Shown piece after piece: positions 1,737-63,485 of a stretch of 64,000 bases of DNA. The translations under genes were made by a program, and so were the position numbers. This stretch comes from Escherichia phage DT571/2. Each line of letters opens with the position of its first letter. Position 1 is the stretch's first letter. The DNA lies in the sequence record NC_047749.1. The stretch is one strand, 5' to 3'. Below the pieces are notes generated by a model. That model ran no database searches. It saw only the letters and a list, made by a program, of their open reading frames with translations, and was not told where the DNA came from.

Positions 1737-1768
1737 ATTTGTTTTCCTTTTGTTGTTTTCTCAAATTT

Positions 1769-1812
1769 ATGAATATATTATACAGAATTTATGAATATAT
1801 TATACAGAATTT
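1769..1812. repeat. Perfect tandem direct repeat, 2 x 22 bp (ATGAATATATTATACAGAATTT on plus strand)
   Basis: Read directly; duplicates the -10 hexamer and initial transcribed region of a minus-strand promoter. Confidence 0.85.
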
Positions 1813-3353: not shown

Positions 3354-3391
3354 TATTTGTTTTCCTTTTTGTTTATCAATTTATGAAGTAT

Positions 3392-3420
3392 ATTATACGA
3401 GAATTTGAAGCGTTCAGCAA
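3392..3420 (-). promoter_or_regulatory. Sigma70-type promoter TTGCTG-17-TATAAT
   Basis: Hexamers and spacing; 38 nt upstream of ATG of 171-aa gene. Confidence 0.6.
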
Positions 3421-3436
3421 ATGAATTTTTTAAAAA

Positions 3437-3715: not shown

Positions 3716-3742
3716 AAAGCCCTCCTCACTTTCAATACGAAT

Positions 3743-3771
3743 ATTATACTAAATTAGAGGGCTTTAAGCAA
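3743..3771 (-). promoter_or_regulatory. Sigma70-type promoter TTGCTT-17-TATAAT
   Basis: Preceded by AAAAATT A-tract; 27 nt upstream of ATG of 92-aa gene. Confidence 0.6.
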
Positions 3772-3791
3772 CTGAATTTTTAAATTATTTA

Positions 3792-7438: not shown

Positions 7439-7464
7439 AACTAATCTCCTTAACTAATAGAGAT

Positions 7465-7493
7465 ATTATAGCAAATCAGATAGCGATTAGCAA
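7465..7493 (-). promoter_or_regulatory. Sigma70-type promoter TTGCTA-17-TATAAT upstream of HNH endonuclease/nrdB operon
   Basis: Hexamers and spacing. Confidence 0.6.
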
Positions 7494-7503
7494 GTAAAAT
7501 TTC

Positions 7504-7530
7504 AAAGAAAAAGGAGACCCGAAGATCTCC
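7504..7530 (-). terminator. Intrinsic terminator after nrdA
   Basis: GGAGA-loop-TCTCC hairpin followed by TTTTTCTTT. Confidence 0.55.
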
Positions 7531-10966: not shown

Positions 10967-11041
10967 AAATAACACTCCTATAGTGTACTTTGCTTCTAAC
11001 AGAGGATCAACAAAAGATCTTGTTTATCAACTTACAAATAT

Positions 11042-11070
11042 ATTATACCAGTATATACAGTAAAAAGCAA
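11042..11070 (-). promoter_or_regulatory. Sigma70-type promoter TTGCTT-17-TATAAT for phoH (divergent region)
   Basis: Hexamers and spacing. Confidence 0.6.
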
Positions 11071-11115
11071 CTACAATTTTAAATAAGCCTATGATATTGC
11101 ATTTAAATAAAAAAT

Positions 11116-11207: not shown

Positions 11208-11236
11208 TTGACATAGTGGGTAATATTTAGTATAAT
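11208..11236 (+). promoter_or_regulatory. Perfect-consensus sigma70 promoter TTGACA-17-TATAAT upstream of nrdD
   Basis: Exact consensus hexamers; ~130-nt leader before nrdD ATG. Confidence 0.7.
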
Positions 11237-13204: not shown

Positions 13205-13240
13205 AGCCAGGTTGCTAGTCGACCTGGCTTTTATTTTATT
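13205..13240 (+). terminator. Intrinsic terminator after nrdD
   Basis: AGCCAGGT-loop-ACCTGGCT followed by TTTTATTTTATT. Confidence 0.75.
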
Positions 13241-13268
13241 TGCTTTCAGCCAAAAATTTATATATAAT
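13240..13268 (+). promoter_or_regulatory. Sigma70-type promoter TTGCTT-17-TATAAT for Sir2-like operon
   Basis: Hexamers/spacing; conserved downstream AAATTTGAGAGGAG element. Confidence 0.65.
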
Positions 13269-13296
13269 AGATTTGTAAATTTGAGAGGAGAAAGCT

Positions 13297-16176: not shown

Positions 16177-16219
16177 TCTATGCTCAAAGACACTGGTAGC
16201 AGCCCCTGGAAAAATTTAC

Positions 16220-16248
16220 TTGCTTGATGCTCAAAATCTTGATATAAT
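16220..16248 (+). promoter_or_regulatory. Sigma70-type promoter TTGCTT-17-TATAAT preceding ~600-nt non-coding region
   Basis: Hexamers/spacing, AAAAATTT A-tract. Confidence 0.65.
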
Positions 16249-16842
16249 ATTTATATTGAATTGAGAGACATTAGTAAAAATTGATTTTGCTAATTTTTCT
16301 TAGTGAAGCTGACAAGGGATTTACGGCGAGAGGAATCGATGACCCGTAAATAGCTGCATAAGGTACGTTGCTAGAGCTTTACGAAAAAGTTTTTTCTTGT
16401 TTACAATCCGCGATACGGAACAGTTAGGCTGCCCCATTAAGGGTTGTTTTAACTATTACTAGTGTTTATATTGCATTAGTTAACCTTCAATTAAGTGATC
16501 TGTGTACCCTGAATTCGGAAAGGTAAATCCAAACCGTGCATATTTAGCTCGTTATATAGGCAGAGCTTTATATGGGGGTGCGAACGAAAAGAGCAGCGAA
16601 TGGCGGCACGTACAGTAGTCACCTACCAATAGGATAGTGAGGACAAGTAGAATCGGCTTAGCGGCCAATGACCTAGGTTCTATTCTGTATAAGAGCGAAG
16701 AGAGCACAGCACTGAGATATGATAACTTATTCATATTGTTTGATGATAATTGATGTTTACGTAAATAGTAGTAATAGTTGTTCTATTCTTTCTGAATAGT
16801 CCTAAAGAAAAGATTTCGATTAACCAACACAGGAGTATTATT

Positions 16843-19632
16843 GTGTTTTCTATCCTCCAAGGTCACGCCGGGTTTTCTCGTGATTTAGCAACAGGTATTT
16901 GGCGAGAAATCAAAGCGGGAGATTATACCTTTGCCAAGCGATTCTCGAAAGAGCATCCAGAAGGTAAACCAGCTTCTATGCCCTTCAAATTTGATGTAAT
17001 AGAAGAGCACGACCCACAAAGCCTTGCAGAAATGTTACCACTTATGAGACGTTTAACGTCTGACCCTCATATCGTTGCGGTACGAGGTCGATGTCTTGCA
17101 CCTAAAAATAATGTGCGACGTAAGAAAGATAACTTTAATGTATCTAATCCTAGTAATATTATTGCTATGGACGTGGATGGTATCCTAGATACCGGTGGGT
17201 ACGACAAATTTAATCTTGTTGGTATGGCCCGCCACATTATTAAGATGTTGAATAGTATTAGTGAGGATATGTTTCCTCTTGATGCAGGCTTTATAGCTCA
17301 TGCATCATCTTCGGCTGGGCTAAAACCAGGTATCCGAATGCACTTAATACTAGAATCTAACGTCAAGGTAACTCAGGGTCAGCTAAAGTTCTTATTTACA
17401 TCTATCAATGATAGTAGTAAGCAAAAATTTGGTTTTGATATTGCCGACCTAGCTTATTACTCATCTGTCCAGCTCCACTATTTTGCCGACCCCTTATTTA
17501 GCGATGGTATTGTTGATCCGTTTAAAGCGGAGAGTAAGCCACGTCTGGTGTATGTTAAAGGCTCAAAAGTAAACTTACCTAATAATCTAGTTGACTATGA
17601 AACAACTAGAGGAGAGTTTAAAGAGGAATTCTACTCTTTACTCGATCAAATTAAAGGCAAAAAGATTGCTTCTGATAAAGTAGAAGAAACCATCAGCGAG
17701 TTAGAAGAGGCTGATGATGGAGTGTACTTGCGTATTATCCCCAAACTATACCATAGAGCATTAGAGGATGGTGTTGATTTTGAATGGCTAGAACGTGAGA
17801 TTAAACCAGCTTTATCTGAATATATTGCAACTAAAGATAACAGTCGTAATATTCAAGATTACTTTAATAACGGTCGCAAGCAGGCTCTCAAAGCGTTTGT
17901 TAATAATTCTAAACGTGAGATTCCACCAAATCTGAAAGGTGTTCCACTTAAGAAATTAGAAGTGGATTCTCCACCAGAAGTTCCGTACCTGAAGATTAAC
18001 ATTGTGCCCCCAAAAGGTCATATAACATTTGTTAAGGCAAGTCTTGGTACGGGTAAAACTACGGCAGTAACTAAATGGCTGGACGCAGGTGTTCTTCCGG
18101 GCAACTTTTTAGCAGTTACAAATACTAGAGCACTGGTATCTTCAAATGCCAAGAAATTTAGTGCAGGACAATACGATAAGTCTGTAGATATGCTCAACTT
18201 TAAACGTGGGGCTATTGATCGTATGTCCACAACTATTCACTCTTTGCATAAGTTCAAAAGTTTTATTGGGCAAATAGACACCATTTTTATTGATGAATGT
18301 GACGCTGTAATGAATGACCTATTATTCGCCCCTGTTGTTAAACAACGTCGCGAGTGTATTCAAGTTCTACGTGACATCCTCATGACAGCTAAGACTGTAA
18401 TCTTATCCGATGGTGATATTAGTGCGGAAACAATTGAAGCATATGGTTCTTTGATTGAGTTCGATAAACCAGTTGCATTTTACAATCACCACCGTAAAAT
18501 GTTATCAAAGGCTCATGCTTATGAATTCCCTGATGAATCCAGTATTTGGGTTGCACTTCAGACTTCTCTAGAGATGGGTGAGAAATCTATTCTAGTATCT
18601 GATTGTGGTCCTGATGAGCTGAATGAGAAGGGTATGGCACTACGTCGTAATACTGGTGCATTAGTTAAAGAAATCCATTCAAACTCCACTTCAGATGTGG
18701 ATATTCGACGTATTCTGGATTATACAACTAATGAGCTAATTGATCAACAAATTGATTGCTTATTATGTAGTCCATCCGTAACGAGTGGAGTTGACTTTAA
18801 CTATTTTGATAACGTATTTGTTATTACTAGAACCAGTAATCAGGCGCCAAACATGCGTTTTCAAGCAATCAGGCGCGACCGTGGTGCTCAGAATATCTAT
18901 TATTTTATTGATAAATCCACTAGTGGATTCTCTGCGGGTTCTGAACAATATAATATCGATGAAGGTTGGCTGGAGTTAGCACAGCAATTATATGCACGTC
19001 GCAGGGAGCTGGAGTCTAGGAACTATACTAGTACTTTACGTTATTACTTGCTTGATCAGGGTGCAACTATTGATATTTTCAGTGAAAGCTGGGGAACTAT
19101 TGAAGGTGCTGGTAAAGAATACACAGAAGAGCGAATCAAAGCTATTCTACATTCAACTCCTGATTATTGTGCTCCACGTCATGCGGATGCGTATGAGGCT
19201 AAACTACTTATTGTTCGCTATTATCATCTTGAGTCTATTAAAGATGTAACAGTTGAGCATGTTGAACAATATATCAAAGATAAGCCGAATGATCGAGCTG
19301 CATTCTTCCATAAGATGCACGAGATGTTCTGGGAAGATATTAAGAAGTGTTCAAATGTGACCATTAAACCATTCATAGAAGCTCTGAAAGGTAAGAAGAA
19401 AGATTTCTTCCTTAAAACAGGTCAGAGTGCTAACCCAAAATATGCTAGAATGTATCTTGGTATGATGGGTATTGGTAAAGATATGAACACGGAGAATATC
19501 GTAGACTGGTATAGAACCTACTGCAAAATCGAATGTATGCCAATCCCTCTCAAATTCATGACTGAAGAAGAGAAGGCTATGGCAGAAGAAGCAATGTCAG
19601 AACTAGGTGCTAGAAATGACAGTGAAGAATAA
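16843..19632 (+). CDS. Large ATPase/helicase-like protein (929 aa; Walker A GTGKTT, Walker B IFIDECD); possible replication initiation/origin-binding helicase
   Basis: GTG start with AGGAG RBS; P-loop and DExD motifs in central region; ~390-aa N-terminal domain of unknown function. Confidence 0.85.
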   Translation: MFSILQGHAGFSRDLATGIWREIKAGDYTFAKRFSKEHPEGKPASMPFKFDVIEEHDPQSLAEMLPLMRRLTSDPHIVAVRGRCLAPKNNVRRKKDNFNVSNPSNIIAMDVDGILDTGGYDKFNLVGMARHIIKMLNSISEDMFPLDAGFIAHASSSAGLKPGIRMHLILESNVKVTQGQLKFLFTSINDSSKQKFGFDIADLAYYSSVQLHYFADPLFSDGIVDPFKAESKPRLVYVKGSKVNLPNNLVDYETTRGEFKEEFYSLLDQIKGKKIASDKVEETISELEEADDGVYLRIIPKLYHRALEDGVDFEWLEREIKPALSEYIATKDNSRNIQDYFNNGRKQALKAFVNNSKREIPPNLKGVPLKKLEVDSPPEVPYLKINIVPPKGHITFVKASLGTGKTTAVTKWLDAGVLPGNFLAVTNTRALVSSNAKKFSAGQYDKSVDMLNFKRGAIDRMSTTIHSLHKFKSFIGQIDTIFIDECDAVMNDLLFAPVVKQRRECIQVLRDILMTAKTVILSDGDISAETIEAYGSLIEFDKPVAFYNHHRKMLSKAHAYEFPDESSIWVALQTSLEMGEKSILVSDCGPDELNEKGMALRRNTGALVKEIHSNSTSDVDIRRILDYTTNELIDQQIDCLLCSPSVTSGVDFNYFDNVFVITRTSNQAPNMRFQAIRRDRGAQNIYYFIDKSTSGFSAGSEQYNIDEGWLELAQQLYARRRELESRNYTSTLRYYLLDQGATIDIFSESWGTIEGAGKEYTEERIKAILHSTPDYCAPRHADAYEAKLLIVRYYHLESIKDVTVEHVEQYIKDKPNDRAAFFHKMHEMFWEDIKKCSNVTIKPFIEALKGKKKDFFLKTGQSANPKYARMYLGMMGIGKDMNTENIVDWYRTYCKIECMPIPLKFMTEEEKAMAEEAMSELGARNDSEE

Positions 19633-19849
19633 AAAATGGGAAACAAGGAAGTTTCCAGTAAAAGAACGTAAAGTTCCTGTTTATGATACTTCGGAGAAGC
19701 TATGTAGGGTGGTTCCTGCTAGACTAGCAGGTATCCCTAACATATCCGAGTGGTTACTTAAACAACGGAGGACTAGCGTATCCCTTCGCATAGGGTTTGA
19801 GTTGGATAAAGTATATGCTGAACTTTCTTCTTTGCTCAAGGAATCATAA
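19616..19849 (+). CDS. Small hypothetical protein (~77 aa)
   Basis: ATG overlapping end of upstream gene; weak RBS. Confidence 0.35.
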   Translation: MTVKNKKWETRKFPVKERKVPVYDTSEKLCRVVPARLAGIPNISEWLLKQRRTSVSLRIGFELDKVYAELSSLLKES

Positions 19850-19858
19850 AAAATTTAC

Positions 19859-19887
19859 TTGCATAGTTCAAAAAATTTCTGTATAAT
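19859..19887 (+). promoter_or_regulatory. Sigma70-type promoter TTGCAT-17-TATAAT
   Basis: Hexamers/spacing; conserved downstream CATAAATTTGAGAGAGGAG. Confidence 0.65.
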
Positions 19888-19918
19888 AGATTCATAAATT
19901 TGAGAGAGGAGTTTAAAT

Positions 19919-20623
19919 ATGGCTGGTTCTCGCAGAAAGAAACATATCCATGAAATCCCGGATGAAGTCTTTAAAAAAGTTATAGAGCATCTGGAGAACG
20001 GTGGTACTAAGAAAGCAGCATGTGAGATGCTCGGCGTATCATCCAATCCGACTATGGAAAGGATGATAGAAGAGTGGCAAGATCGCCAAATTCAAGTTGC
20101 CGAGATGAAGAAAAAGAAACGTGGTACACTCATTGAAGGCATCGAGTTAGCTAACGTTATTGAACAGTATTTATCCGGTGATTCTTTTGAAGAGATTGCC
20201 GATCGTAATTATCGCTCTGTAGCAATGGTTAAATCTGTTCTGGAACGATATGGTGCTCTACTTCGTTTGAACGATATTGTAGACCCGTTGAATCCACCAA
20301 TTATTCCTGATGATGCTGTAGCAGAAGAATTTGAAGTAGGTGAGCTAGTTTGGGTTCCTGGATACCAGTGTATCGGTGAAATCAAAAAAGCAATGGATAA
20401 CCCTGTTGGTTGTTACCGTGTATGGCTTCTATCAGAAGGCAAACAACAGAATGTTCATTATATGAATTATGAATTAGCTTCTGTAAAGCATTTAGAAAAG
20501 CTAGGGGTTGACGTAAAATCTCTGGGGTATAAATGGTCCCGGGAAGAAGTTATCACACTGATTAACGAAGCTGTTAAGGCTGCCTTGAAACTTGATAAAG
20601 AAAAAGGAAAACGCCGTGAGTAA
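19919..20623 (+). CDS. Putative DNA-binding protein (N-terminal HTH-like segment)
   Basis: GGTKKAACEMLGVSSNPTMERM resembles HTH; strong promoter and GAGAGGAG RBS upstream. Confidence 0.7.
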   Translation: MAGSRRKKHIHEIPDEVFKKVIEHLENGGTKKAACEMLGVSSNPTMERMIEEWQDRQIQVAEMKKKKRGTLIEGIELANVIEQYLSGDSFEEIADRNYRSVAMVKSVLERYGALLRLNDIVDPLNPPIIPDDAVAEEFEVGELVWVPGYQCIGEIKKAMDNPVGCYRVWLLSEGKQQNVHYMNYELASVKHLEKLGVDVKSLGYKWSREEVITLINEAVKAALKLDKEKGKRRE

Positions 20624-20867
20624 ACTAACTGATTTGCTTAAAGATGGGGAAGTAAAAACACTATATCGTAGAAGCTGGGATAACGATAATAACGGCTTAG
20701 TGTTACTAACTTTAGATGCTGACTCGGATGTAGCTACTCAACATACCTGGGTAGCGGGCAACTATCCATATAGCGAAGTTGTTTCATTAACAGTATGCGA
20801 AGCTGTTGCAGACGATTGGGAGATTGCCAGCATTGATGATATGCTCGCTGTTGGCCTGGTGGAGTAA
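20616..20867 (+). CDS. Hypothetical protein (~83 aa)
   Basis: GTG start 5 nt after AAAAAGGAAAA; overlaps stop of upstream gene. Confidence 0.45.
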   Translation: MSKLTDLLKDGEVKTLYRRSWDNDNNGLVLLTLDADSDVATQHTWVAGNYPYSEVVSLTVCEAVADDWEIASIDDMLAVGLVE

Positions 20868-20884
20868 CTACTTAAAAATTTCAG

Positions 20885-20913
20885 TTGCTTAATCCTACAA
20901 TTCTTGATATAAT
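20885..20913 (+). promoter_or_regulatory. Sigma70-type promoter TTGCTT-17-TATAAT
   Basis: Hexamers/spacing, A-tract. Confidence 0.65.
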
Positions 20914-20970
20914 ATTCTCATAGTTTGAAAGAACTATTCTGTTTAATTCTTAATTAAGGAAATATAAAAT

Positions 20971-21381
20971 ATGACTACTCCAACTCAGTGGACTGATGAA
21001 CTGTTCGAAAAAATGTCTTCCGAATACGTTGCTCGTATGGAGCAATTCCCAGAGGATGAACGTCCGAGTGTTAGCATGGAAATTGTTAGTGAAATTGCCC
21101 AGGAAAATGGTGTAACTCCGAACGGTTTTCGTATGAAGCTGACTAAAGCAGGTTTGTATATTAAGAAAGCTGCTGGCTCTGCTTCTAAATCTAGTGCATC
21201 TACTGGAGAAAAAGCTTCCGGTGGTTCTCGTACCTCCAAAGCCCAGGCTCATGCCGACCTTCGTTCAGCGTTCTCTGATGCTGGCTTAGCACCAGATTTT
21301 CTGGATGATGCAATTATCGACAAACTGACCGGTAAAGCGGCTGCTCATCTGGCAGAAGCAATCCGAGCTATCACTAAGTAA
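20971..21381 (+). CDS. Hypothetical protein (136 aa), codon usage suggests high expression
   Basis: Own promoter 20885-20913; AAGGAAAT RBS. Confidence 0.65.
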   Translation: MTTPTQWTDELFEKMSSEYVARMEQFPEDERPSVSMEIVSEIAQENGVTPNGFRMKLTKAGLYIKKAAGSASKSSASTGEKASGGSRTSKAQAHADLRSAFSDAGLAPDFLDDAIIDKLTGKAAAHLAEAIRAITK

Positions 21382-21733: not shown

Positions 21734-22042
21734 ATGAGCGATCAGGTAAACCAAAACTATGAAGGACACGTTGATGATCAGTCAATCCTTCTATGGGAAA
21801 GAGAAGGGGAACAAATAAGATTGACAGTATCTGAATTTCGTGGGAATCTATACATGGGAATTAGGTATTGGCTCCAGGATATTACTGGAGAATGGTTTCC
21901 AACGAAATCCGGCTTCTCTTTTCCGTACACTCTAGAAACTACTTCACAGCTATTCTATGCTTTTACGCAAATCCTTAGTGAATCTGAGGTTTTACATGAA
22001 GTACAGAAACGAGCTGAAGAACTCAAAGCCAAGAATGCCTAG
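21734..22042 (+). CDS. Hypothetical protein (102 aa)
   Basis: ORF ends inside terminator stem. Confidence 0.6.
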   Translation: MSDQVNQNYEGHVDDQSILLWEREGEQIRLTVSEFRGNLYMGIRYWLQDITGEWFPTKSGFSFPYTLETTSQLFYAFTQILSESEVLHEVQKRAEELKAKNA

Positions 22043-22059
22043 TTCTTGGCTTTTTCTTT
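22028..22059 (+). terminator. Intrinsic terminator
   Basis: GCCAAGAA-loop-TTCTTGGC followed by TTTTTCTTT; overlaps stop codon. Confidence 0.75.
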
Positions 22060-22069
22060 ATAAATGTAT

Positions 22070-22098
22070 TTGCTTTCAACTCAGTTTTGTTATATAAT
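22070..22098 (+). promoter_or_regulatory. Sigma70-type promoter TTGCTT-17-TATAAT
   Basis: Hexamers/spacing; directly after terminator. Confidence 0.65.
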
Positions 22099-22127
22099 AT
22101 TTATATAAATTAATGAGAGGATCAATC

Positions 22128-23342: not shown

Positions 23343-23371
23343 TTGACATTTTCGCCGCTTAGGTATATACT
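23343..23371 (+). promoter_or_regulatory. Near-consensus sigma70 promoter TTGACA-17-TATACT between ligA and ligB
   Basis: Hexamers/spacing. Confidence 0.6.
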
Positions 23372-23435
23372 ATTATCATTCAGTTGAGGGATAGAAAGTT
23401 ATGGCGAGGGTAAGCAAAGTTAGTTAAAATTGTAG

Positions 23436-23464
23436 TTGCTAAATGCTTAAATACTTGCTATAAT
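23436..23464 (+). promoter_or_regulatory. Sigma70-type promoter TTGCTA-17-TATAAT upstream of ligB
   Basis: Hexamers/spacing. Confidence 0.65.
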
Positions 23465-23494
23465 ATTTATATAAATTGATAAGGAAGAAATTTG

Positions 23495-26589: not shown

Positions 26590-27476
26590 GTAGAATAACA
26601 GAACTACTTGATCTGAAAGGCATTGAGTATAAAGACACAGGTGGGGACATCCTCATCTGTTGTCTCAACCCAGATCATGATGATAAACACCCAAGTTTGC
26701 GTATTGACCCTGAAACAGGTATTATGCACTGCTTGAGTTGTGGCTTCGGTAAAGGTATACCGAGCATTTACCATTATTTTAATGAGACTCAGTACCGACA
26801 GTCCCCAAGACTATCCCAAGTACGTAAAAAGATTTCAGAGATTAGAAATGGATCTACAAATCTTGCAATCCCAGAATCTGCTTTTCTTTTTGAAGGTGAT
26901 TTCCGGGGTATCAGTTCTAAGACCTTAAAGAAATATTTTGCTTTCCAACACCAAGAGGACTGGGAGGGCAGAATTGTATTCCCAATCACAGATGCTGTTG
27001 GACGCAATATCCTATTTTTGGGTCGTTCTATAAACAGTTCTGCCCCTCCTAAATACTTAGTAAAACCAAAACAAGTTTCACCACCAATTTTCCCTGTACG
27101 ATATAATACTCCAGTTCTTATTCTAGTTGAAGGCATCTTTGATATGCTGAAGCTAGAGGATAATGGTATAGACTATGCTTCCTGCTGCTTTGGTACACAT
27201 CAGTTTACTTCTGATAACATTGCAGATAAGTTCAGTCCTTATATTATTGCCGGCGTAAAAGTTGTTGTTATCTTACTAGATAATGATGCTTCTGGTAATA
27301 AAGCTGCACAAGCACTGGCCAAGCTAATTCGTACAAAAACGCGTTTAACACCTGTAGTTGCTAACTTTCTTCTGCCTGAAGGTAAAGACCCTGGTGATTT
27401 AAATAAAGAAGAAGTCGATACGTTAGCAAAACGTATTGAAATTTTAGTTGCTGAATCACTTAAAGATTTGGTATAA
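26586..27476 (+). CDS. DnaG-type DNA primase (zinc ribbon + TOPRIM)
   Basis: CCLNPDHDDKHPSLRID...CLSCGFGKG zinc ribbon; TOPRIM acidic motifs LVEGIFDM and LLDNDASG. Confidence 0.85.
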   Translation: MSRITELLDLKGIEYKDTGGDILICCLNPDHDDKHPSLRIDPETGIMHCLSCGFGKGIPSIYHYFNETQYRQSPRLSQVRKKISEIRNGSTNLAIPESAFLFEGDFRGISSKTLKKYFAFQHQEDWEGRIVFPITDAVGRNILFLGRSINSSAPPKYLVKPKQVSPPIFPVRYNTPVLILVEGIFDMLKLEDNGIDYASCCFGTHQFTSDNIADKFSPYIIAGVKVVVILLDNDASGNKAAQALAKLIRTKTRLTPVVANFLLPEGKDPGDLNKEEVDTLAKRIEILVAESLKDLV

Positions 27477-27538
27477 TATATTGGTAAGTTAGAGAAGAAA
27501 CACTGAAGTTATACTTACTTACCAAGAGGAGATTAAAT

Positions 27539-30596: not shown

Positions 30597-31945
30597 AGGT
30601 TGTTATATCTAATAAAGCCTATTTCAAGCCCGATGATGAACTTTGGGATTATTGTAGTAAGCAAACCACTTACCACATAGAGACAATGACTAGTAAATAC
30701 CCTATTATGTATAAGAATAGTGGTGTTGTTGCCAAAGAGATTAAGTGGATTCCTATTACACGTCTGGATTTACTAGATGCTAAAGGAATAAAATACGAAT
30801 TAGTTGATAAACGCACGTTAGCTCCGGTAGATATACCAAAACCGTCGTTTAAACTGCGTGAAGAAGATCAGCTTCCAATATATGAAGAATGCGATGATAC
30901 CTGCATTATTAATGGTAAGCCTGGGTTTGGTAAAACTATCCTAGCCCTTGCACTTGCGTATAAATTTGGCCAGAAAACTTTGGTAATCTGTACGAATACA
31001 TCCATTCGTGAAATGTGGGCAGCAGAAGTTCGTAAATGGTTTGGGTTTGAACCGGGCATCATAGGTTCTGGGAAATACAATATCGATCCACCAATTGTAG
31101 TCAGTAATATTCAAACAGTGAATAAACATGCGAATAATCTTTCTAAAGTATTCGGTACTGTTATAGTTGATGAAGTTCACCATTGTGTGGCTACAACTTT
31201 CACTAACTTCCTAGAAATATCATGTGCTCGCTATAAAATTGGACTATCTGGTACGTTAAAACGTAAGGATGGCTTGCAAGTTATGTTCAAAGATTTCTTT
31301 GGATATAAAATATTTAGCCCGCCGGTTAATAATACTGTTGCACCTACAATCCATAGGTACTCCGTACCAGTTGAATTGTCTGGAAACCAAAACGTACCGT
31401 GGGCATTACGTGCTAACGATGTGTATAACCACCCTGAATATCGAGGAGCTATTATAAACCTAGCACATTTATATGTGAATATGGGACATAAAGTACTCAT
31501 TGTAAGTGATAGAACAGAGTTAATCCAAACAGTACTAGAAGCTCTTACGCAGCGGGGTGTCACAACATATGAAATTATAGGGGCAACCCACTTAGATGAC
31601 CGATTAAAAATTCAGGAAGATATAGCAAAAGGTGGGCCTTGTGTACTTGCAGCAGCTCAAAGTATCTTCTCTGAGGGTATTTCCCTTAATGAGCTATCTT
31701 GTTTAATAATGGGAAGCCTCATTAATAATGAATCTCTCATTGAACAGCTTGCAGGCCGTGTTCAACGTATTGTCGATGGTAAACTCGACCCTATTGTTGT
31801 AGATCTAATTATGAAGGGGGGCACTGGACTAAGACAGGCTTCTGGACGTATGGCAGTATATCGTAACAACGGGTGGAAAACTATTACTATGACTCCAGAG
31901 AAAGCAGTTCAATTAGCTAAAATTGCATTTGGCAACAGCTCATAA
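30593..31945 (+). CDS. SF2 DNA helicase (DEAH-box type)
   Basis: Walker A GKPGFGKT, DEVHH, motif VI QRxGR-like LAGRVQR. Confidence 0.85.
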   Translation: MKVVISNKAYFKPDDELWDYCSKQTTYHIETMTSKYPIMYKNSGVVAKEIKWIPITRLDLLDAKGIKYELVDKRTLAPVDIPKPSFKLREEDQLPIYEECDDTCIINGKPGFGKTILALALAYKFGQKTLVICTNTSIREMWAAEVRKWFGFEPGIIGSGKYNIDPPIVVSNIQTVNKHANNLSKVFGTVIVDEVHHCVATTFTNFLEISCARYKIGLSGTLKRKDGLQVMFKDFFGYKIFSPPVNNTVAPTIHRYSVPVELSGNQNVPWALRANDVYNHPEYRGAIINLAHLYVNMGHKVLIVSDRTELIQTVLEALTQRGVTTYEIIGATHLDDRLKIQEDIAKGGPCVLAAAQSIFSEGISLNELSCLIMGSLINNESLIEQLAGRVQRIVDGKLDPIVVDLIMKGGTGLRQASGRMAVYRNNGWKTITMTPEKAVQLAKIAFGNSS

Positions 31946-31958
31946 ATGATGTATAATA
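31929..31958 (+). promoter_or_regulatory. Candidate promoter TTGGCA-18-TATAAT overlapping helicase stop
   Basis: Hexamers/spacing; conserved downstream CATAAATTTGAGAGAG. Confidence 0.5.
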
Positions 31959-32028
31959 TATACATAAATTTGAGAGAGAAAGTTTCGGATTGATAAGAAA
32001 GTCCGAAGCAGAAAAATAAAAATTTTAG

Positions 32029-32058
32029 TTGCTAAATTCTCTCGAAATCTAGTATAAT
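32029..32058 (+). promoter_or_regulatory. Sigma70-type promoter TTGCTA-18-TATAAT
   Basis: Hexamers/spacing; conserved downstream CATAAATTCGAGGAG. Confidence 0.6.
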
Positions 32059-32166
32059 ATATACATAAATTCGAGGAGAAAACAAAAAATTAAATTCTTC
32101 GATTATGAAAAGCTATACTTACTAGCTAGAGGAAATTCCGACCTAATTATTAAGCTATTCAAAAGA

Positions 32167-33223: not shown

Positions 33224-33248
33224 GAGGGGCTTCGGCCCCTTTCTTTTT
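33224..33248 (+). terminator. Intrinsic terminator
   Basis: AGGGGC-TTCG-GCCCCT followed by TTCTTTTT. Confidence 0.8.
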
Positions 33249-33253
33249 AACTT

Positions 33254-34231
33254 ATGAGAATATTATTTAGTGCTGATCATCATATCAAACTAGGGCAAGA
33301 TAAAATCCCCAAAGAATGGCAGAAGCGTCGCTTCCTGATGCTAGGAGAACGGTTAAATGATATATTCCATAATCATAACTGTGATTTGCATATTATTGGT
33401 GGTGATTTATTTGATCATTCCGACCCGTCGTCAGAAGAAATAGAACTGCTTGAACAGTTTATGTCAAGACTTGACCATCCCGGCAAAATCTTTACTGGAA
33501 ATCATGAAATGTTAACTAAAACCATTTCGTGTCTATATCATTATGCGGGAGTTATTAATAAAGTAACTAGTGGGAAGTGGGAAGTAATTACCAAACCATA
33601 TCGTTCCCATGAATTTGATATTGTTCCGTATGATGAGATTCATAAACCAAAGTGGAAACCTGCTGAATCAAAACTATGTTTCACGCATGTTCGTGGTGAA
33701 ATCCCTCCACATGTAAAACCAGAAATTGATCTAACTAAGTACAACTGTTATGATACTGTAATTGCTGGCGATTTACACTCTTATACTAATAGCCAGACTA
33801 TCGGGTCTACTAGACTCCTCTACCCAGGGTCTCCATTAACTACATCGTTCCATAGAGAACGCACAAAAGGTACAAACGGTTGCTTTATCATTGATACCGA
33901 CACATTAAAAGTAGAATGGATTGAACTAGGTGATTTACCACAACTGATTCGTAAAACAATCGGAGCTGGTGAAGAGATGGAACCTAGTGATTACGATCGT
34001 GTAGTCTACGAAGTTACTGGTGACGTTGTTCAATTAAAGTCTATCAAAGACTCTGATTTATTAGATAAGAAGATTAACCATCGAGTTACTAAAGACGCTA
34101 AGTTAAATCTTGTTGATCTTGATATGTTAGGTGAACTTGAACTTTACTTCCGTGAAGTCGAGAAGCTACCTCAAGGCGACATTGATAGAATCTTGGCTAG
34201 AGCTGCGAAATATGTCAAAGATTACAATTAA
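33254..34231 (+). CDS. sbcD: SbcD/Mre11-like nuclease subunit
   Basis: Phosphoesterase motifs DHH, GDLFD, GNHE. Confidence 0.88.
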   Translation: MRILFSADHHIKLGQDKIPKEWQKRRFLMLGERLNDIFHNHNCDLHIIGGDLFDHSDPSSEEIELLEQFMSRLDHPGKIFTGNHEMLTKTISCLYHYAGVINKVTSGKWEVITKPYRSHEFDIVPYDEIHKPKWKPAESKLCFTHVRGEIPPHVKPEIDLTKYNCYDTVIAGDLHSYTNSQTIGSTRLLYPGSPLTTSFHRERTKGTNGCFIIDTDTLKVEWIELGDLPQLIRKTIGAGEEMEPSDYDRVVYEVTGDVVQLKSIKDSDLLDKKINHRVTKDAKLNLVDLDMLGELELYFREVEKLPQGDIDRILARAAKYVKDYN

Positions 34232-36050
34232 GACACTAAAATTTAGTAACGTTATGTCTTACGGTAAAGACATCGTAATTCATTTCGATAAGAATCCAGT
34301 TACTCAACTAATTGGCGGCAATGGACTAGGGAAATCCACCATCGCTACGGTTATAGAAGAGCTATTCTATAATAAAAATTCTCGAGGTATCAAGAAGGAT
34401 GCATTGTTCTCTTGGAATGCCCCTAAGAAAGAATACGATATGCACGCTTATTTCTCGAAAGATGATGATGAGTATGAGCTGCATAAAGTAGTTAAGTCAA
34501 CTGCTAAAGTAACGTTGATTAAGAATGGGGAAGATATTAGTGGGCATACGGCAACCCAAACATACAAGATGATCGAAGAGATTATGGGTGGTGACTTTCA
34601 AACATTCACCAAACTGATTTATCAATCAGTGGGTTCCAACCTAGACTTTCTAAAAGCAACGGATGCAACACGTAAGGCTTTTCTTGTTAATTTGTTCAAT
34701 CAAGAGCAATACAAAGAAATGTCGGAAACTATTAAGGCTGACCGTAAAGAAATAGCAAATACCTTAAATAATTTGCAGGGCCAAATGGCTGTAATTACGA
34801 AAATCCTTAATGGAAAAAATAATCTAGGAACTTTGCAGGAACCCGTAGAAGTGCCGGAGTTTGATGAAGAGCCATTAGCACAAGAACTTACTGAATCGAA
34901 AATTAAGGCGGCATTAGCCAAGTCACAAGAGGCTAATATTACTAAGTTGCGTAATTTGGACAAAGCTGTACAAGTTGCCGAACAATCTTTCGAACCTTTC
35001 AAAAATTTGCCCGCGCCCACCGACCAAAATGAAGAGATCTCGAGTGTTACGCGTGACCTAACGATTGTGACCTCACGTGCGAGCGAAGTTAAGAAACGTT
35101 ATCAGAAGTTCAAGCAAGAGGCTTCAAATACTGAATGCCCTACTTGCGGTACTCATCTGGATACAACTGCTGCTCAAAAAGCAATGGATATGGCTAGAAC
35201 AGAATATGATCCTCTGTTCAAAGAGAAGCAATCTCTTGAAGCTAAGCTAGAACAGTTGAAGAAAGAACAACTTGAGTACGTTGCGTATACTAGAGCAAAG
35301 GATGCTTTGGATAAAGCAGTGGTAGCTAGAGACGAGTTCAAAAATTCAATGAGTGATGCTTCTTTTGAAGAACTCAATGTGCAAATCCTACAGGTGCAAA
35401 TCCGACAATTAGAACAGGAAATCGCTGATGGCCGCTCTAAGGTTGCAATTGCCAAAGAGCATAATGCAAATGTCGAATTAGCCAATGCAAAATATAAAGC
35501 AAAGCTAGAACAGATTGAGAAAGCTGAAGCAGAAATGTCTGAGATTACTTCCAAACTTGATGGAGTAGCCGAAGCTGTAGCTGATCTCGATATTCTAATT
35601 GCTGCATTGAAAAATCTGGTGGGATATAAACTAGAACATAGTGTGAAAGTATTTGAAGAACTAATTAATAAATACCTTTCCATTATGACTGGCGGTAAAT
35701 TCGCACTTGGATTTGAACTTGATGAAACAAAATTACAAGTAGTAATCTTCAATGATGGAAACCGTACCAGTATGGAGAACTGCTCTACTGGTCAGCAAAG
35801 TCGAATTAATCTAGCAACCCTGCTAGCTATTCGGATGCTGTTAACCTCTATTAGTAAAGTTAATATTAATCTTCTATTCCTTGATGAAGTAATTAGCTTT
35901 ATTGATACGAAAGGACTTGATACTCTCGTTGAACTATTAAATGAGGAAGAAAGTCTAAATTCTATCATTGTTTCTCACGGGCATACGCATCCATTGGCTC
36001 ATAAGATTACTGTCAAGAAAGATGCAGAAGGATTTTCCTACTTAGAATAA
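34212..36050 (+). CDS. sbcC: SbcC/Rad50-like ATPase subunit
   Basis: Walker A GGNGLGKST, long coiled-coil, C-terminal signature/D-loop region; start at internal ATG MSKITIK overlapping sbcD by ~20 nt. Confidence 0.85.
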   Translation: MSKITIKTLKFSNVMSYGKDIVIHFDKNPVTQLIGGNGLGKSTIATVIEELFYNKNSRGIKKDALFSWNAPKKEYDMHAYFSKDDDEYELHKVVKSTAKVTLIKNGEDISGHTATQTYKMIEEIMGGDFQTFTKLIYQSVGSNLDFLKATDATRKAFLVNLFNQEQYKEMSETIKADRKEIANTLNNLQGQMAVITKILNGKNNLGTLQEPVEVPEFDEEPLAQELTESKIKAALAKSQEANITKLRNLDKAVQVAEQSFEPFKNLPAPTDQNEEISSVTRDLTIVTSRASEVKKRYQKFKQEASNTECPTCGTHLDTTAAQKAMDMARTEYDPLFKEKQSLEAKLEQLKKEQLEYVAYTRAKDALDKAVVARDEFKNSMSDASFEELNVQILQVQIRQLEQEIADGRSKVAIAKEHNANVELANAKYKAKLEQIEKAEAEMSEITSKLDGVAEAVADLDILIAALKNLVGYKLEHSVKVFEELINKYLSIMTGGKFALGFELDETKLQVVIFNDGNRTSMENCSTGQQSRINLATLLAIRMLLTSISKVNINLLFLDEVISFIDTKGLDTLVELLNEEESLNSIIVSHGHTHPLAHKITVKKDAEGFSYLE

Positions 36051-38127: not shown

Positions 38128-38311
38128 ATTTATTTACCTACCTTTAACTCAGCAATCTCGGCTTACGTTGCCTAGATATTCGGTATCAACGTTTACACAG
38201 TGTGCGTCGTATTCCACAGCATGAGATGTGTATAGAGTTCCTTCTGCTCCAGTAAGTACCACCTGGCTAACACCCGCATACTTACCGGAGCCTTTCAGCG
38301 CCTTGAGTGAA

Positions 38312-44200: not shown

Positions 44201-46273
44201 TTACCTTATATGAATATATCCGTTTACTAGATCTATTTTCATCTTATATTGAGCTTCAGGATTTCCTGATAGTGCGGCAGCCCTATCATATATAGTATTA
44301 ACACCTATTTGTGATAGAAAAGCATTCCCAGCTACTATTTTATCCGCTGTAATAGTACCATTAACTATCATATTACCATGAAGTACCATAGCTGGGTTAA
44401 CCCAACCAGAACCGTTCCATTGTCTAGTAAATGCAGTTTGAGGTGAATTACTATTAAATTCAGTTAATACATCATATTTAACTGGGGGAGAACCGAAGTT
44501 ACTTTGAAAGAAAGAATTAGCTTGTCCATCGTCCCAACCACTTAAACCTGCTATACCTACAGAATACATCCCAGGACCACGTTGTCCATCATGCCCTATA
44601 GTACCTTCAGTACCGCTCCACTGAACTACATCCGACCAACTAGTACCCTCTAATAACCTATTAGTAACTGGATCAAGTGTACCCGTAGTCGCATAGATAT
44701 TTTGTGTCATATCTGTGCGGTTAGGTGGAGTTTTTGACCAACCCGGAGGCGGATAATCCTGCTCTAGTGGTTTAGCAGGTAGAGATGTTGCTAACTTATA
44801 AACAAATACTGTTTGCTTACCTTGCATACCAGTACCCAGATCTACATCGCCATTAGGAGTTCCAATAACTACTCCACTAGAAATACGTAGCACATCACCA
44901 TCATAACGAATCCACTGTGTGGCATTACCAATGTCTAATTTAGCTTTGGCAGAGGTATTATCCATACCCATCCAAATACCTGAGTTATTATCCCCCCAAG
45001 ATTTACCCTGAGTGTAAATTGCCGGATTATCCTCACCAGATAAGTTAGTCATGATAAAGTTCGCAGCATTAATATCTCTAGTAATTACTTTACCATCAAC
45101 GTTAACAACACGGTTTATAGGGTCAAAAGAAATGGGTGCTTTTCCTTCTTCATCTAGCAGACCAATGTTAATAGCACCAGTAGCTGCGTCGATTAAGAAT
45201 GTCTGTTTCCAGATTTCTCCCTCTTTCATGCTGCCCTTAATAAAGGCATAATTAACATCAATACCCGTCTCATTGACAAAACTGTTGTCTAGAGGAGTAT
45301 CTTCATTCAATATAAATGTTGCAGGAGCTGATTCTGTTATATCTTGCCTATTTGGTCCCCAGGCAATTGATGATACCTTAAAAGTATGCTCAACTTTCCA
45401 TGGGAATGATATAATCGTTGCAGCCCTAGCAGCCCCAACGTTTATCTTTTGAGCTTTAGCCCAACCAGTCCTAGCATATTCTTCAGAGTTTATATAAGTA
45501 ACCAGAAATTCACGGACGTTAGCACCCGCCCCACGTTCCCAGTCCCATTCTATTCTAACATCATAACGTTCCTTACCATCTGCAATTCGTGCAGCTTTAA
45601 AGGCAATGTTAGTAGGTGCAGTAGGCGGTACGAAATTATAAGCTACAGTGAAAACGCTAGGATATTCATAATAACCAGATGAGTCAACTGTAACACCATC
45701 TGGCATCGTAACTTGGCCAGATATTCTGATCTTATAGTCACCAACAGGAACACCACCAAATTTGATAGTAGGTCCCAGTGCGCCTATATAATATTTAACC
45801 CATTCACTATCTTCTGATGCAGTACTTTTTAATTCAATAGTGCAGTAACTAGCTTCACCAGTTGTCTCTACAACAACTATGGGAGCACCAACACCAACGT
45901 CAACGGGTTCTGATTCAGATCTTGCTGCAACAATTATTGGCTTTTCCTTTGTTCTAAAGTTAGTTTCATTAGAGAGGTTGATACCAATCTTAGCTTCCAG
46001 TAACTCTGAGTCAATAATTGAGTCATAGAAAGCCCCCTGAATCTCATAGGAGGTAGAGGGGGTTAGATTATTAATCATTACGAAGAAAGTATCTACACCG
46101 GTGTAATCACGTCTATCTATACTTTCTTCTACTTTTAACCAAAAAGATCTACCAATAACATCATAATCAGTATAAATGGAGTGCTGGACATAAGCCAAAG
46201 TATATCCAGTCATTATACTATTTAAGACCATTTTGGCTGGTGCATTATTTGAAATCATTAAATGGATGCCCAC
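44201..46273 (-). CDS. Central straight fibre protein (T5 pb4-like)
   Basis: 690 aa, position between pb3 and collar as in T5. Confidence 0.75.
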
Positions 46274-49718: not shown

Positions 49719-49745
49719 AGTTAATTTCTCCTCTTAGATACAATT

Positions 49746-49774
49746 ATTATAATAGTATTAGAAAATTTTATCAA
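49746..49774 (-). promoter_or_regulatory. Sigma70-type promoter TTGATA-17-TATAAT upstream of Dit (pb9) gene in late block
   Basis: Hexamers/spacing, directly after tape-measure terminator. Confidence 0.5.
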
Positions 49775-49790
49775 GAAATTTTTATTTTTC

Positions 49791-57245: not shown

Positions 57246-57248
57246 TTA

Positions 57249-63010: not shown

Positions 63011-63485
63011 AATCCCCCAATCCAAAGCTACTTAGAAAGATTACTATATCCTCTAGGGCAACATTGAGATTCCATCTAATGTGGTATAGCATATATGACC
63101 CTTATTGTGTTATAGATGTAGTTTTTATTATTATAGTTATTTAATAGCACATACTCTATTCTGGGTATTTTGGCTTTAATAGCTACATCTAGTGATATAG
63201 TGTAGAGGTGTAATGTGGTGTTGCTTCCCAAACGTGTGCTCTCTGGCATTTAAATACTGTTTTTGTACGTTGGTTTACATATTCACCGACAATTTGGATT
63301 CCACGATCAGCTAATCTAATATTTATATCTTTTATTGTTAGCTTTTGTCGACCCGTAGAATCTCCTACACCTCATGTAGAGCATTAATTTTTTCTTGTTT
63401 ACGTTCTATTATGGGAGAAGTTCTCCCGATCAATGAATATAGTATACATAATCGTATCGAATTTGTAAAGGGGATTTTAAAATAC

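Follow-up and report, generated by a model that had tools for sequence, protein, structure and literature searches.

The 12 sites listed in an earlier note on this DNA are promoters of the early class from a T5-like phage (Demerecviridae) and belong to a family of very strong T5-like early-gene promoters, of which 15 members were found in the window (the whole stretch of 64,000 nt that was analysed). The promoter family was already known, and its focal copy (19847–19913, plus strand) matches the textbook P_N25 of expression vectors and transcription research. Very probably, the members are cassettes of an early promoter and a 5′ UTR that are read by the host σ70 polymerase and carry an initial transcribed sequence (ITS) that speeds promoter escape, the focal copy being the ortholog of P_N25. 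The conserved block that follows the −10 hexamer is made of two parts: a promoter-linked core, formed by the discriminator (ATATTC) and positions +1 to +10 (ATAAATTnGA), and a GAGG Shine-Dalgarno (SD) sequence. The core is no translational element and is independent of translation, while the GAGG run is the ordinary SD of genes that start at about +22 to +28.

Few known σ70 promoters are as strong as P_N25 and its relatives, which serve as a standard model in work on abortive initiation and promoter escape and underlie the T5-promoter expression vectors. Knowledge of P_N25 and of the set of T5 early promoters reportedly goes back to work by Gentz and Bujard in 1985, and control of promoter escape by the ITS is said to go back to Kammerer and colleagues in 1986. 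The promoter consensus and the ATATT discriminator had been published before, as had the part that the transcribed sequence of N25 plays in escape. The additions made here are modest, namely the split between core and SD, the retention of the core at tRNA promoters, and the presence of the module across three Demerecviridae subfamilies and Sugarlandvirus.

The focal promoter and P_N25 of phage T5

In a sequence comparison that found more than 400 T5-like genomes, T5-like phages were 95–98% identical to the window, whose phage is a relative of the DT57C/Gostya9 type and not T5 itself. The focal site occupies the orthologous position, with gene D3 on one side and the small ORF that follows the D2 helicase on the other. 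In the T5 record (AY692264), “promoter P-N 25” is annotated at 54987–55061, directly upstream of D3, and the focal promoter drives a D3-like ORF with its ATG at 19919 (+26). It shares both genomic position and architecture with P_N25 of T5, and the alignment of 19759–19993 with the T5 P-N25 region gave 95.3% identity over 235 nt.

Along the plus strand, the focal promoter comprises the A-tract AAAAAATTT (19848–19856), the −35 hexamer TTGCAT (19859–19864) followed by a 17-nt spacer, the −10 hexamer TATAAT (19882–19887), the discriminator AGATTC (19888–19893), an A at +1 (19894, in the register of PMC7472727), the ITS core ATAAATTTGA (19894–19903), and the SD GAGAGAGGAG (19902–19911). From the −10 hexamer through the discriminator and +1 to +20, the sequence is TTCTGTATAATAGATTCATAAATTTGAGAGAGGAGTT, with no difference between the focal site, the T5 record, and the printed P_N25 constructs, and P_N25 as published has the same letters as the focal site from TTCTGTATAAT through GAGAGAGGAGTT. 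The printed constructs initiate with ApU (bioRxiv 042432), and the N25 register gives −12 to +2 as TATAATAGATTCAT (PMC7472727). Judging from the identity with N25, focal transcription would begin with the A that lies 7 nt past TATAAT, and the other start sites in the window phage are likewise putative, placed by homology. The two copies differ in the −35 hexamer (TTGCAT in the window and TTGCTT in T5 P_N25) and in the spacer (agttcaaaaaatttctg in the window and tcaggaaaatttttctg in T5). The earlier note had given the −35 of the family as TTGCTT/TTGCTA; at the focal site it is TTGCAT, a single change from TTGCTT, and the published consensus pattern (AAAAATT at about −43, TTGCTw, 17–18 bp, TATAAT(A), TAAATT at +1) is otherwise kept.

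Members of the family in the window

Site-by-site inspection and a scan of both strands showed that all 12 sites of the earlier note were present with the architecture it described. Scanning both strands for TTGnnn-N16-19-TATAAT added three members to the list, for a total of 15, and detected an extra, duplicated −10/ITS copy at 1782 (−). The proposal of an early promoter family with an A-tract UP-like element, TTGCTw, a consensus −10, and a conserved ITS agrees with the T5 annotation and with the consensus in print, which has AAAAATT at −43, TTGCTw, TATAATA, and TAAATT at +1 (Niu et al. 2012, PMC3326045). That consensus, derived from 32 promoters of AKFV33 with a 17–18 bp spacer, is the same observation as ours, but in that paper the flanks are described merely as “AT-rich regions”, discriminator, ITS core, and SD are kept unsplit, and class specificity and family-wide conservation, both observed here, are unmentioned. 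In the T5 record AY692264, the counterparts of the window sites mapped to P-N26, P-K28a, P-H207, Ppol, and promoters annotated as “putative”. A generic TTGACA/TATAAT scan of the window, on the other hand, found 48 sites against 58.8 expected, showing no enrichment, and failed to pick up most members, since TTGCTw gets a low score against TTGACA. Such a scan is no useful detector for the T5 early class. The earlier note, by contrast, had found a real promoter family by eye.

On the plus strand, the promoter at 13228–13294 (−10 at 13263) reads TTGCTT-17-TATAAT-AGATTT-GTAAATTTGAGAGGAG, with a start codon at +23 (13297), and is the ortholog of the “putative promoter” at 47660–47727 of AY692264. 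The one at 16208–16274 (−10 at 16243; ATTTAT-ATTGAATTGAGAGA; T5 putative promoter 50951–51018) has a long leader without an ORF, after which comes the D2 helicase ORF (16843). The P-N26 ortholog (20873–20939; −10 at 20908; ATTCTC-ATAGTTTGAAAGAA), with 98.3% identity to the P-N26 region, has a 51-nt leader and a separate SD close to the ATG at 20971. The promoter at 22058–22124 (−10 at 22093; ATTTAT-ATAAATTAATGAGAGG; T5 putative promoter 57237–57304) has its start codon at +24, and the P-K28a ortholog (23424–23490; −10 at 23459; 100% identity) lies upstream of the ORF for ligase subunit B. The ortholog of the T5 DNA polymerase promoter, Ppol (27436–27503; −10 at 27472; 18-nt spacer; ATATTG-GTAAGTTAGAGAAG; 55-nt leader; T5 putative promoter 62954–63022), is one of the three added members; Ppol has been validated as early by primer extension (PMC7472727). 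The promoter at 31917–31983 (−10 at 31952; −35 TTGGCA; ATATAC-ATAAATTTGAGAGAG), which had the top matrix score (24 bits, see below), is followed by a strong hairpin at 31982–32009 and is present in T5 without annotation, and the one at 32017–32084 (−10 at 32053; 18-nt spacer; ATATAC-ATAAATTCGAGGAG; T5 putative promoter 67535–67603) has a long leader up to the ORF at 32167.

On the minus strand, the promoter at 425–491 (first T of the −10 at 456; ATATTT-TTAAATTGATGAAACGAGG; T5 putative promoter 34860–34927) has its start codon at 420 (+25). The promoter at 1751–1839 carries a 22-nt tandem duplication, so that ctgTATAATatattcataaatt occurs twice (−10 at 1804 and 1782) with one −35; the duplication is common to DT57C, and T5, S126, and KPP2018 have a single copy. 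In the P-H207 ortholog (3366–3432; −10 at 3397; ATACTT-CATAAATTGATAAAC), the core is shifted by 1 nt, and the promoter at 3717–3783 (−10 at 3748; ATTCGT-ATTGAAAGTGAGGAGG; start codon at 3715, +22; T5 putative promoter 38131–38197) matches the ITS core only weakly. The other two added members lie between nrdA and an HNH ORF (7439–7505; −10 at 7470; ATCTCT-ATTAGTTAAGGAG; T5 putative promoter 41858–41921) and upstream of a PhoH-like ORF (11016–11082; −10 at 11047; ATATTT-GTAAGTTGATAAAC; 69-nt leader; T5 putative promoter 45431–45497).

T5 early promoters are expressed in the early period by the host σ70 holoenzyme (PMC7472727). Early expression by σ70 at the window sites would be an extension from T5, and the point checked here was the gene context, in which the genes downstream of the promoters serve nucleotide metabolism and replication. 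Recognition of this promoter family explains the early-region transcription map of the window.

Similarity among the members could also have arisen by common descent, with promoter cassettes duplicated time and again or subject to gene conversion and with no selection on the block. The fresh 22-nt tandem duplication (1760–1805) and the neighbouring pairs with identical 19-mers (−10 at 31952/32053 and at 22093/23459) speak for such a process. We nevertheless consider this origin highly improbable, given that the conserved blocks of a single copy are interrupted by positions whose information is at background and that the spacer and flanks of orthologs diverge at about three times the rate of the discriminator and ITS. 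Divergence per position was 3.3% in the discriminator, 3.7% in the ITS (+1 to +10), and 3.6% in the UP element, compared with 5.7% in the −35 hexamer, 10.3% in the spacer, and 11.3% in the upstream flank. The block also recurs at sites that are not orthologous, in genera whose nucleotide sequences have little in common.

The block downstream of the −10 hexamer

A position weight matrix (PWM) was built from the 21 nt after TATAAT in the 15 members, with the hexamer itself left out, and the members were scored by leave-one-out. Scores were 10–22 bits in 11 of the 15 members, against a window-wide background mean of −29 (sd 11), and in a scan of ~128,000 positions the best nine were all family members. 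Three minus-strand members matched the core poorly (−4.6 bits for the −10 at 3748, 0.9 for 7470, and 0.8 for 3397), and the core is therefore not obligatory. With at most one mismatch, TATAAT-N6-ATAAATT matched 10 times against 0.38 expected, and none of 100 dinucleotide-preserving shuffles gave 10 or more matches. The downstream similarity is greater than A/T richness accounts for. As a free-standing 11-mer, the block showed no enrichment in the window (13 against 9.2 expected), which argues that the core is no independent repeat or processing site, and all four exact copies of the 11-mer follow a promoter −10.

The 7-nt ATAAATT equals the 3′ part of tCGATAAATT, the reported high-affinity motif of H-NS (Lang et al. 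2007, PMC2094087), and might for this reason be taken as an H-NS nucleation site. This is scarcely credible: the family lacks the CG, with TTC, TAT, or TAC ahead of ATAAATT, and there would be little biological sense in silencing the strongest promoters of the phage.

The two parts of the block were separated by comparing 60 non-redundant sites, 39 with short leaders (start codon at or before +30) and 21 with long or non-coding leaders. The discriminator held 3.9 bits of information in both classes, and positions +1 to +10 held 7.9 bits in the short-leader class versus 4.7 bits in the other. The G-run at +13 to +17 was present only in the short-leader class, and the GAGG run was seen only with a start codon at about +22 to +28. 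The GAGAG(A)GGAG element of the earlier note is confined to the short-leader subset and is not family-wide. The core, in turn, is retained at tRNA promoters. In Pectobacterium phage My1, with +1 at 38922, the leader ahead of the tRNA-Ser at 38912 is 10 nt in all and consists of ATAAATTAAT, and in Vibrio phage pVp-1, with +1 at 40125, a 23-nt leader precedes the tRNA-Thr at 40148. P13b of T5 precedes a small RNA.

These observations bear on whether positions +1 to +10 act in the RNA, as an A/U-rich, unstructured leader that aids ribosome loading (S1) upstream of the SD or determines how stable or RNase-sensitive the mRNA is. It is established that leaders rich in A/U can raise translation. Also in its favour, leaders are very uniform at 39 of the 60 sites, where the start codon comes no later than +30 and a strong SD occupies +11 to +18, and on folding the 15 leaders had for the most part little structure, their first 10 nt being unpaired in most. 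The tRNA promoters, where the leader is discarded, nevertheless largely refute this reading for the core, which also persists in the 21 long or non-coding leaders, and the discriminator is equally conserved yet untranscribed. For 13 of the 15 leaders, folding was at most slightly better than in shuffled sequence (z from +1.15 to −1.87), no fold was shared among them, and an Rfam search of the window gave no match. We hold a role in the RNA to be improbable, and of the transcript-leader function proposed in the earlier note, the SD survives, whereas a translational role for the discriminator and the +1 to +10 core does not; a regulatory target, also named there, keeps a small chance (see below).

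Promoter escape and the initial transcribed sequence

The reading that we prefer, that of cassettes with an escape-promoting ITS, would work as follows. Host σ70 RNA polymerase is expected to read the early promoters without a phage σ factor. Each cassette has an A-tract at about −46 to −38, TTGCTw, and a 17–18 nt spacer with its own A/T tract, then a perfect TATAAT with A as the next base, a discriminator of 6 nt that is rich in A/T (ATATTC/AGATTC), a putative start at A, and finally the ITS ATAAATT(n)GA and purines. The upstream elements are predicted to give very strong polymerase binding and open-complex formation, so that initiation would be limited at promoter escape. The conserved ITS would then speed escape at the level of DNA and polymerase, presumably through an A/T-rich +1 to +7, the lack of a pause-prone YG before +8, and a purine-rich non-template strand. 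The run of purines is sharpened to GAGG(AG) in most copies, where it is the SD of a gene starting at +22 to +28.

For P_N25 itself, the function of +3 to +20 has been placed at the DNA/RNA-polymerase level, in promoter escape, which the N25 ITS controls, an antiDSR variant being ~10-fold weaker (PMC12464699). Escape was measured for P_N25, and by analogy the other copies may use the same mechanism. The family resembles the systems with ITS-controlled escape (Hsu et al.; Heyduk and Heyduk 2018) in being escape-limited and strong, in its purine-rich non-template ITS, and in avoiding YG near +5 to +7. At the 60 sites, the purine fraction in the ITS was 0.70 against a background of 0.50, and YG steps with G at +3 to +7 occurred in 4 of the 60 compared with 41% in the background, in line with the escape rules on purine richness and YG avoidance (PMC5961368, PMC10911233). 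These rules are compositional, however, while the phage family retains a specific string that they do not predict, with a T-G step at +8 to +10 in 44 of the 60 sites and TAnnnT at +2 to +7. As both features exceed the escape rules, an additional sequence-specific reader is possible. Many sequences could satisfy the rules of purine richness and no early YG, and the retention of one string from T5 to a Vibrio phage is left unexplained by them.

One candidate reader is σ70 itself. TAAATT at +2 to +7 is −10-like, and σ70 might re-engage it on the non-template strand after escape and cause a pause near +16 to +18, of the λ PR′/lacUV5 type. The best conserved ITS positions are T(+2), A(+3), and T(+7), together with A(+1), and T(+2)A(+3)nnnT(+7) occurred in 47 of the 60 sites against 2.4% in the background. 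This conservation pattern is that of the −10 hexamer as recognised by σ region 2. However, A/T-rich sequence at +1 to +7 readily yields TAnnnT-like strings, the literature examined on native N25 reports no pause, and native N25 was the most escape-efficient of four ITS variants (Hsu and Han, PMC12464699). The σ-dependent pausing studied by Strobel and Roberts (2014) concerned only the artificial N25anti ITS. On balance, such a pause is very doubtful.

Class specificity and conservation among related phages

With early and late promoters compared according to the annotation of the T5 record, the block was lacking in the pre-early promoters P-D/E20 and P-H22 and in the late promoters P-G25 and P-J5, and it was present at the llp promoter, inside the late region of T5. 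In the window, the ortholog of P-G25 (49720–49786, minus strand; TTGATA-17-TATAAT-AATTGT-ATCTAAGAGGAG) has an A-tract and SD without the ATATTC/ATAAATT block. The module was found in all three Demerecviridae subfamilies and in Sugarlandvirus, and when sites were chosen by nothing but their −35 and −10, identical features emerged in the flanking sequence of Epseptimavirus S126, Sugarlandvirus VAC51, pVp-1, and My1. Two further matches, Klebsiella HS37 and Salmonella SP1a, were initially taken as lying outside the family but are partial Demerecviridae genomes, and so are uninformative on the use of the block in unrelated phages.

The discriminator and ITS core could also serve a class-specific regulatory purpose, as the target by which a phage protein shuts early promoters or marks early versus late. 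Candidates would be the RNAP β-subunit binder gpT5.026 or a DNA-binding factor for early shutoff, and such a role would be compatible with one in escape. ATATT is found in the discriminator of all early T5 promoters (Klimuk et al., PMC7472727), where a regulatory role of the discriminator was already proposed; gpT5.026, which is conserved across Demerecviridae, lowers the affinity of RNAP for the −5/+2 non-template segment, and its loss raises early transcripts and lowers late ones (PMC7472727). Also in favour are the presence of the block in early and not in pre-early or late T5 promoters, its retention in three subfamilies though the hosts differ, and a sequence more specific than general escape rules need. 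Against this, a factor reading +1 to +10 is hypothetical, and class specificity could reflect differing strength requirements alone. We rate a regulatory target as an unlikely alternative.

There is a small chance that ATATTC-ATAAATTnGA is a specific early-class cis-signal, independent of the host and read by a conserved phage factor that times early shut-off (gpT5.026 or another DNA-binding protein) or by σ70 at TAAATT, a reading that stands because the string exceeds the escape rules and is strictly class-specific. Being class-specific, the block is a natural candidate for the signal by which T5 switches from early to late with host σ70 only, as already proposed for the discriminator (PMC7472727). 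Our data reproduce the ATATT discriminator of Klimuk et al. (2020) as the same block after the −10, early and not late, but their description ends at the discriminator (−5/+2), whereas here conservation continued to about +10 and the purine run to about +15.

The upstream A-tract

Upstream of the −35, AAAAnTT was conserved at −33 to −27 from the first T of the −10 hexamer, with 0.7–1.4 bits per position, and the same A-tract was found in four other genera. In the family alignment, no conservation was seen upstream of about −47, where information was at background. The A-tract of N25 has been termed an UP element (PMC12464699, PMC7472727). As in the proximal subsite of the rrnB P1-type UP element, the A-tract of the T5 early family lies directly upstream of the −35, at about −46 to −38, but the family conserves the proximal part only. 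It fits the proximal UP-element type and, judged from its sequence, may contact the C-terminal domain of the polymerase α subunit. The distance to the −35, given as 2–4 nt in the earlier note, is 1–3 nt in some copies.

Family of early promoters

All twelve sites listed in the earlier note were found with the architecture described there, and its reading of them as a promoter family is supported by their match to the annotated T5 early promoters and to the published consensus of the T5-like phage AKFV33. When TTGnnn-N16-19-TATAAT was the only requirement, a scan of both strands of the window returned 23 sites. About 17 of these share an AAAAnTT tract ending 1–3 nt upstream of the −35, a TTGCTw −35, a spacer with a C and an A/T tract, and an A after TATAAT, followed by an ATATTC-like sequence, ATAAATT(n)GA and purines. 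Three members were absent from the original list (−10 at 27472 on the plus strand, and at 7470 and 11047 on the minus strand). A generic TTGACA-based scan of the window gave no enrichment and missed most of the family, underlining that it is a distinct subclass.

The focal promoter, on the plus strand, has its A-tract at 19848–19856, −35 (TTGCAT) at 19859–19864, −10 at 19882–19887, discriminator (AGATTC) at 19888–19893, core of the initial transcribed sequence (ITS; ATAAATTTGA) at 19894–19903, Shine-Dalgarno (GAGAGAGGAG) at 19902–19911, and ATG at 19919. The +1 is placed at the A at 19894 by the register of Klimuk et al. (PMC7472727), in which TATAATAGATTCAT spans −12 to +2. The T5 record (GenBank AY692264) annotates “promoter P-N 25” directly upstream of gene D3. 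Alignment with it gave 95.3% identity over 235 nt, with differences only in the −35 (TTGCAT for TTGCTT), spacer, and flanks, and none in the −10, discriminator, and +1 to +20. Other groups print an identical 37-nt string for P_N25 in their constructs, and ApU is its initiating dinucleotide. Orthologs of P-N26 (20908), P-K28a (23459), and the polymerase promoter Ppol (27472) lie on the plus strand, and that of P-H207 (3397) on the minus strand. The remaining sites map to “putative promoters” of the T5 record, except 31952, which is in T5 too, yet unannotated there.

Homologies outside the −35 and −10 were reportedly noted by Gentz and Bujard in 1985. The family is a correct rediscovery of something already known: the named promoters carry GenBank annotation, the AKFV33 consensus over 32 promoters (PMC3326045) has TTGCTw, 17–18 bp, TATAATA, AAAAATT at −43, and TAAATT at +1, and the early-promoter ATATT discriminator and UP element are in PMC7472727. 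Studies of what the transcribed region does go back to 1986 (PMC12464699). What is added here, none of it surprising, is the separation of core from Shine-Dalgarno, the evidence from tRNA promoters, and conservation across the family.

Conservation and class specificity

The similarity downstream of the −10 exceeds the expectation from A/T richness alone, the alternative that the earlier note had named. With a weight matrix built on the 21 nt after TATAAT, leaving out the selecting hexamer, leave-one-out scores were 10–22 bits in 11 of the 15 members, against a window background of −29 (SD 11), and the nine top-scoring of ∼128,000 positions were all family members. TATAAT-N6-ATAAATT, with at most one mismatch, occurred 10 times versus 0.38 expected, a count attained in none of 100 dinucleotide-preserving shuffles. 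As a free-standing 11-mer the core was not enriched in the window (13 versus 9.2 expected), and all four exact copies sit after a promoter −10; the core thus exists only within the promoter. The best non-family match to the downstream-only matrix (18 bits) is AATAAT followed by attctcataagtt at ∼33225–33300 on the minus strand, antisense to the D11/D12 junction and adjoining a hairpin (ggggccgaagcccc). Lacking a good −35, this site could represent either a chance match or a weak antisense promoter.

When all promoter features of the T5 record were aligned, the full module was common to the early promoters P-F30, P13a, P13b, P-D/E33, P-H207, P-N25, P-N26, and P-K28a, and to about 15 putative promoters. 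The ATATTC-ATAAATT block was absent from the pre-early P-D/E20 and P-H22 (TTGACA with TAAGAT or TAAAAT) and from the late P-G25 and P-J5; it is present in the llp promoter, located within the late region. Also without the block is a perfect (12/12) sigma-70 consensus, TTGACA-17-TATAAT, at 11208–11236 (plus strand), intergenic and upstream of an nrdD-like ORF starting at 11371. It seems to belong to a separate promoter subclass inside the early region; the same arrangement precedes nrdD in T5, S126, and KPP2018, although in T5 the flanking sequence fails to align with that of the window.

Over 35 ortholog pairs (window versus T5, S126, and KPP2018), per-position divergence was 3.3% in the discriminator, 3.7% in +1 to +10, 3.6% in the UP tract, 5.7% in the −35, 10.3% in the spacer, and 11.3% in the upstream flank; the alignments were ungapped and anchored on TATAAT, so that indels inflate divergence beyond +20. 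More telling is the comparison across genera. At sites picked solely by TTG-N16-18-TATAAT, four other genera show the same flanks, at positions that are not orthologous (Epseptimavirus S126, Sugarlandvirus VAC51, Vibrio phage pVp-1 of the Ermolyevavirinae, and Pectobacterium phage My1 of the Mccorquodalevirinae), which argues against simple common descent of the copies. Every copy of the block that BLAST could detect belonged to Demerecviridae.

Core and Shine-Dalgarno

Sixty non-redundant TTGC-N16-18-TATAAT sites were divided into those with a short leader (start codon at or before +30; 39/60) and those with a long or non-coding leader (21/60). Information was 3.9 bits in the discriminator of both classes, 7.9 versus 4.7 bits in +1 to +10, and 1.8 versus 0.9 bits in +19 to +30. 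The G-run at +13 to +17 is confined to short leaders and replaced by A's in the other class, identifying it as the Shine-Dalgarno. The core is retained at promoters with no translated product downstream. In pVp-1, +1 at 40125 leads to tRNA-Thr at 40148 via ATAAAGTTGAGAAAC...; in My1, +1 at 38922 leads to tRNA-Ser at 38912, the intervening leader being exactly ATAAATTAAT, and the site at 32863 (minus strand) is upstream of tRNA-Pro; in T5, P13b precedes a small RNA. Folding gave no common structure for the family's leaders, and Rfam no match. Support for the transcript-leader function proposed earlier is limited to the Shine-Dalgarno of the short leaders.

Many ITS copies (TTAATGAGAGG / TTGATGAGAGG) carry an ATG at +9 to +11. 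The one at 22113 shares its reading frame with the probable true start at 22128, and a mechanical ORF caller therefore opens the gene within the conserved ITS.

Promoter escape and specificity of the core

P_N25 binds polymerase extremely tightly, escape is the limiting step of initiation, and the antiDSR change of +3 to +20 lowers full-length RNA ∼10-fold (PMC12464699); that article, citing Kammerer et al. (1986), reads the native ITS as evolved for fast escape. In general, a purine-rich non-template ITS raises productive yield and YG near +5 to +7 slows escape (PMC5961368; PMC10911233). The family fits these composition rules: its ITS purine fraction is 0.70 (background 0.50), its A/T content over +1 to +7 is 0.90, and YG with G at +3 to +7 occurs at 4/60 sites (background 41%). 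Taken with the P_N25 literature, this fit suggests that the core is a DNA-level promoter element at work in late initiation, to which the Shine-Dalgarno is appended; by analogy, we infer that the N25 escape mechanism holds for the other copies too.

The specificity of the ITS string goes beyond what compositional rules demand: 44/60 sites have a T-G step at +8 to +10 (background 28%), and 47/60 have the −10-like T(+2)A(+3)nnnT(+7) (background 2.4%). This excess and the strictness of the class specificity would allow for a sequence-specific reader of the block. Klimuk et al. (PMC7472727) have already put forward the ATATT discriminator to explain how gpT5.026, the T5 RNAP-binding protein, affects early and late genes differently. 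A speculative possibility raised here is that sigma-70 re-engages TAAATT; the articles consulted gave no pause data for native N25. ATAAATT partly resembles the H-NS motif tCGATAAATT, a likeness that carries little weight here.

Genome context and unusual sites

Gene orientation is leftward as far as ∼11 kb, rightward between 11 and 38 kb (genes of nucleotide metabolism and replication), and leftward again beyond (tail and head), the same layout as in T5. The ∼2 kb around the focal site are 95%–98% identical to T5-like phages, with matches in >400 Tequintavirus/Epseptimavirus records. Gostya9 (97.7%) is nearer over 19000–21000 than DT57C (just 97.2%), and 1690–1870 is 100% identical to DT57C, suggesting a mosaic phage that is related to these two without being either.

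At 1760–1805 (minus strand), a 22-nt tandem duplication (ctgTATAATatattcataaatt twice) places two full −10/discriminator/ITS copies behind one −35, the second TATAAT being +11 to +16 of the first transcript. The counterpart is single-copy in T5, S126, and KPP2018, and DT57C is the sole 100% one-piece match. Two early-type promoters 101 bp apart at 31917–32084 (plus strand) have identical TATAATATATACATAAATT; the transcript of the upstream one (−10 at 31952, −35 TTGGCA) contains a strong hairpin (31982–32009; −14 kcal/mol, z −5.6) just upstream of the second. The ligase subunit B gene is also preceded by a tandem, in which the P-K28b ortholog (TTGACA-17-TATACT; 23343–23371, plus strand), of canonical type, lies ∼90 bp upstream of the T5-early-type P-K28a ortholog.

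Between the promoter with −10 at 16243 (plus strand) and the D2 helicase ORF (16843) lie ∼600 nt that contain no ORF on that strand, and the promoter's transcript starts with a strong hairpin (16260–16304; −14.8 kcal/mol, z −4.8). The region has no Rfam match; it may encode a small RNA, serve as a long regulatory leader, or be origin-related. Finally, at 22025–22075 (plus strand) and 7488–7515 (minus strand), an intrinsic-terminator hairpin directly abuts the promoter, and its T-tail makes up a string, CTTTTTCTTT(A/G)(T)AAAT, that recurs immediately before the −35; Sugarlandvirus and pVp-1 have this junction of terminator tail and promoter as well (L004, near 35329 and 3595; L005, near 44026).
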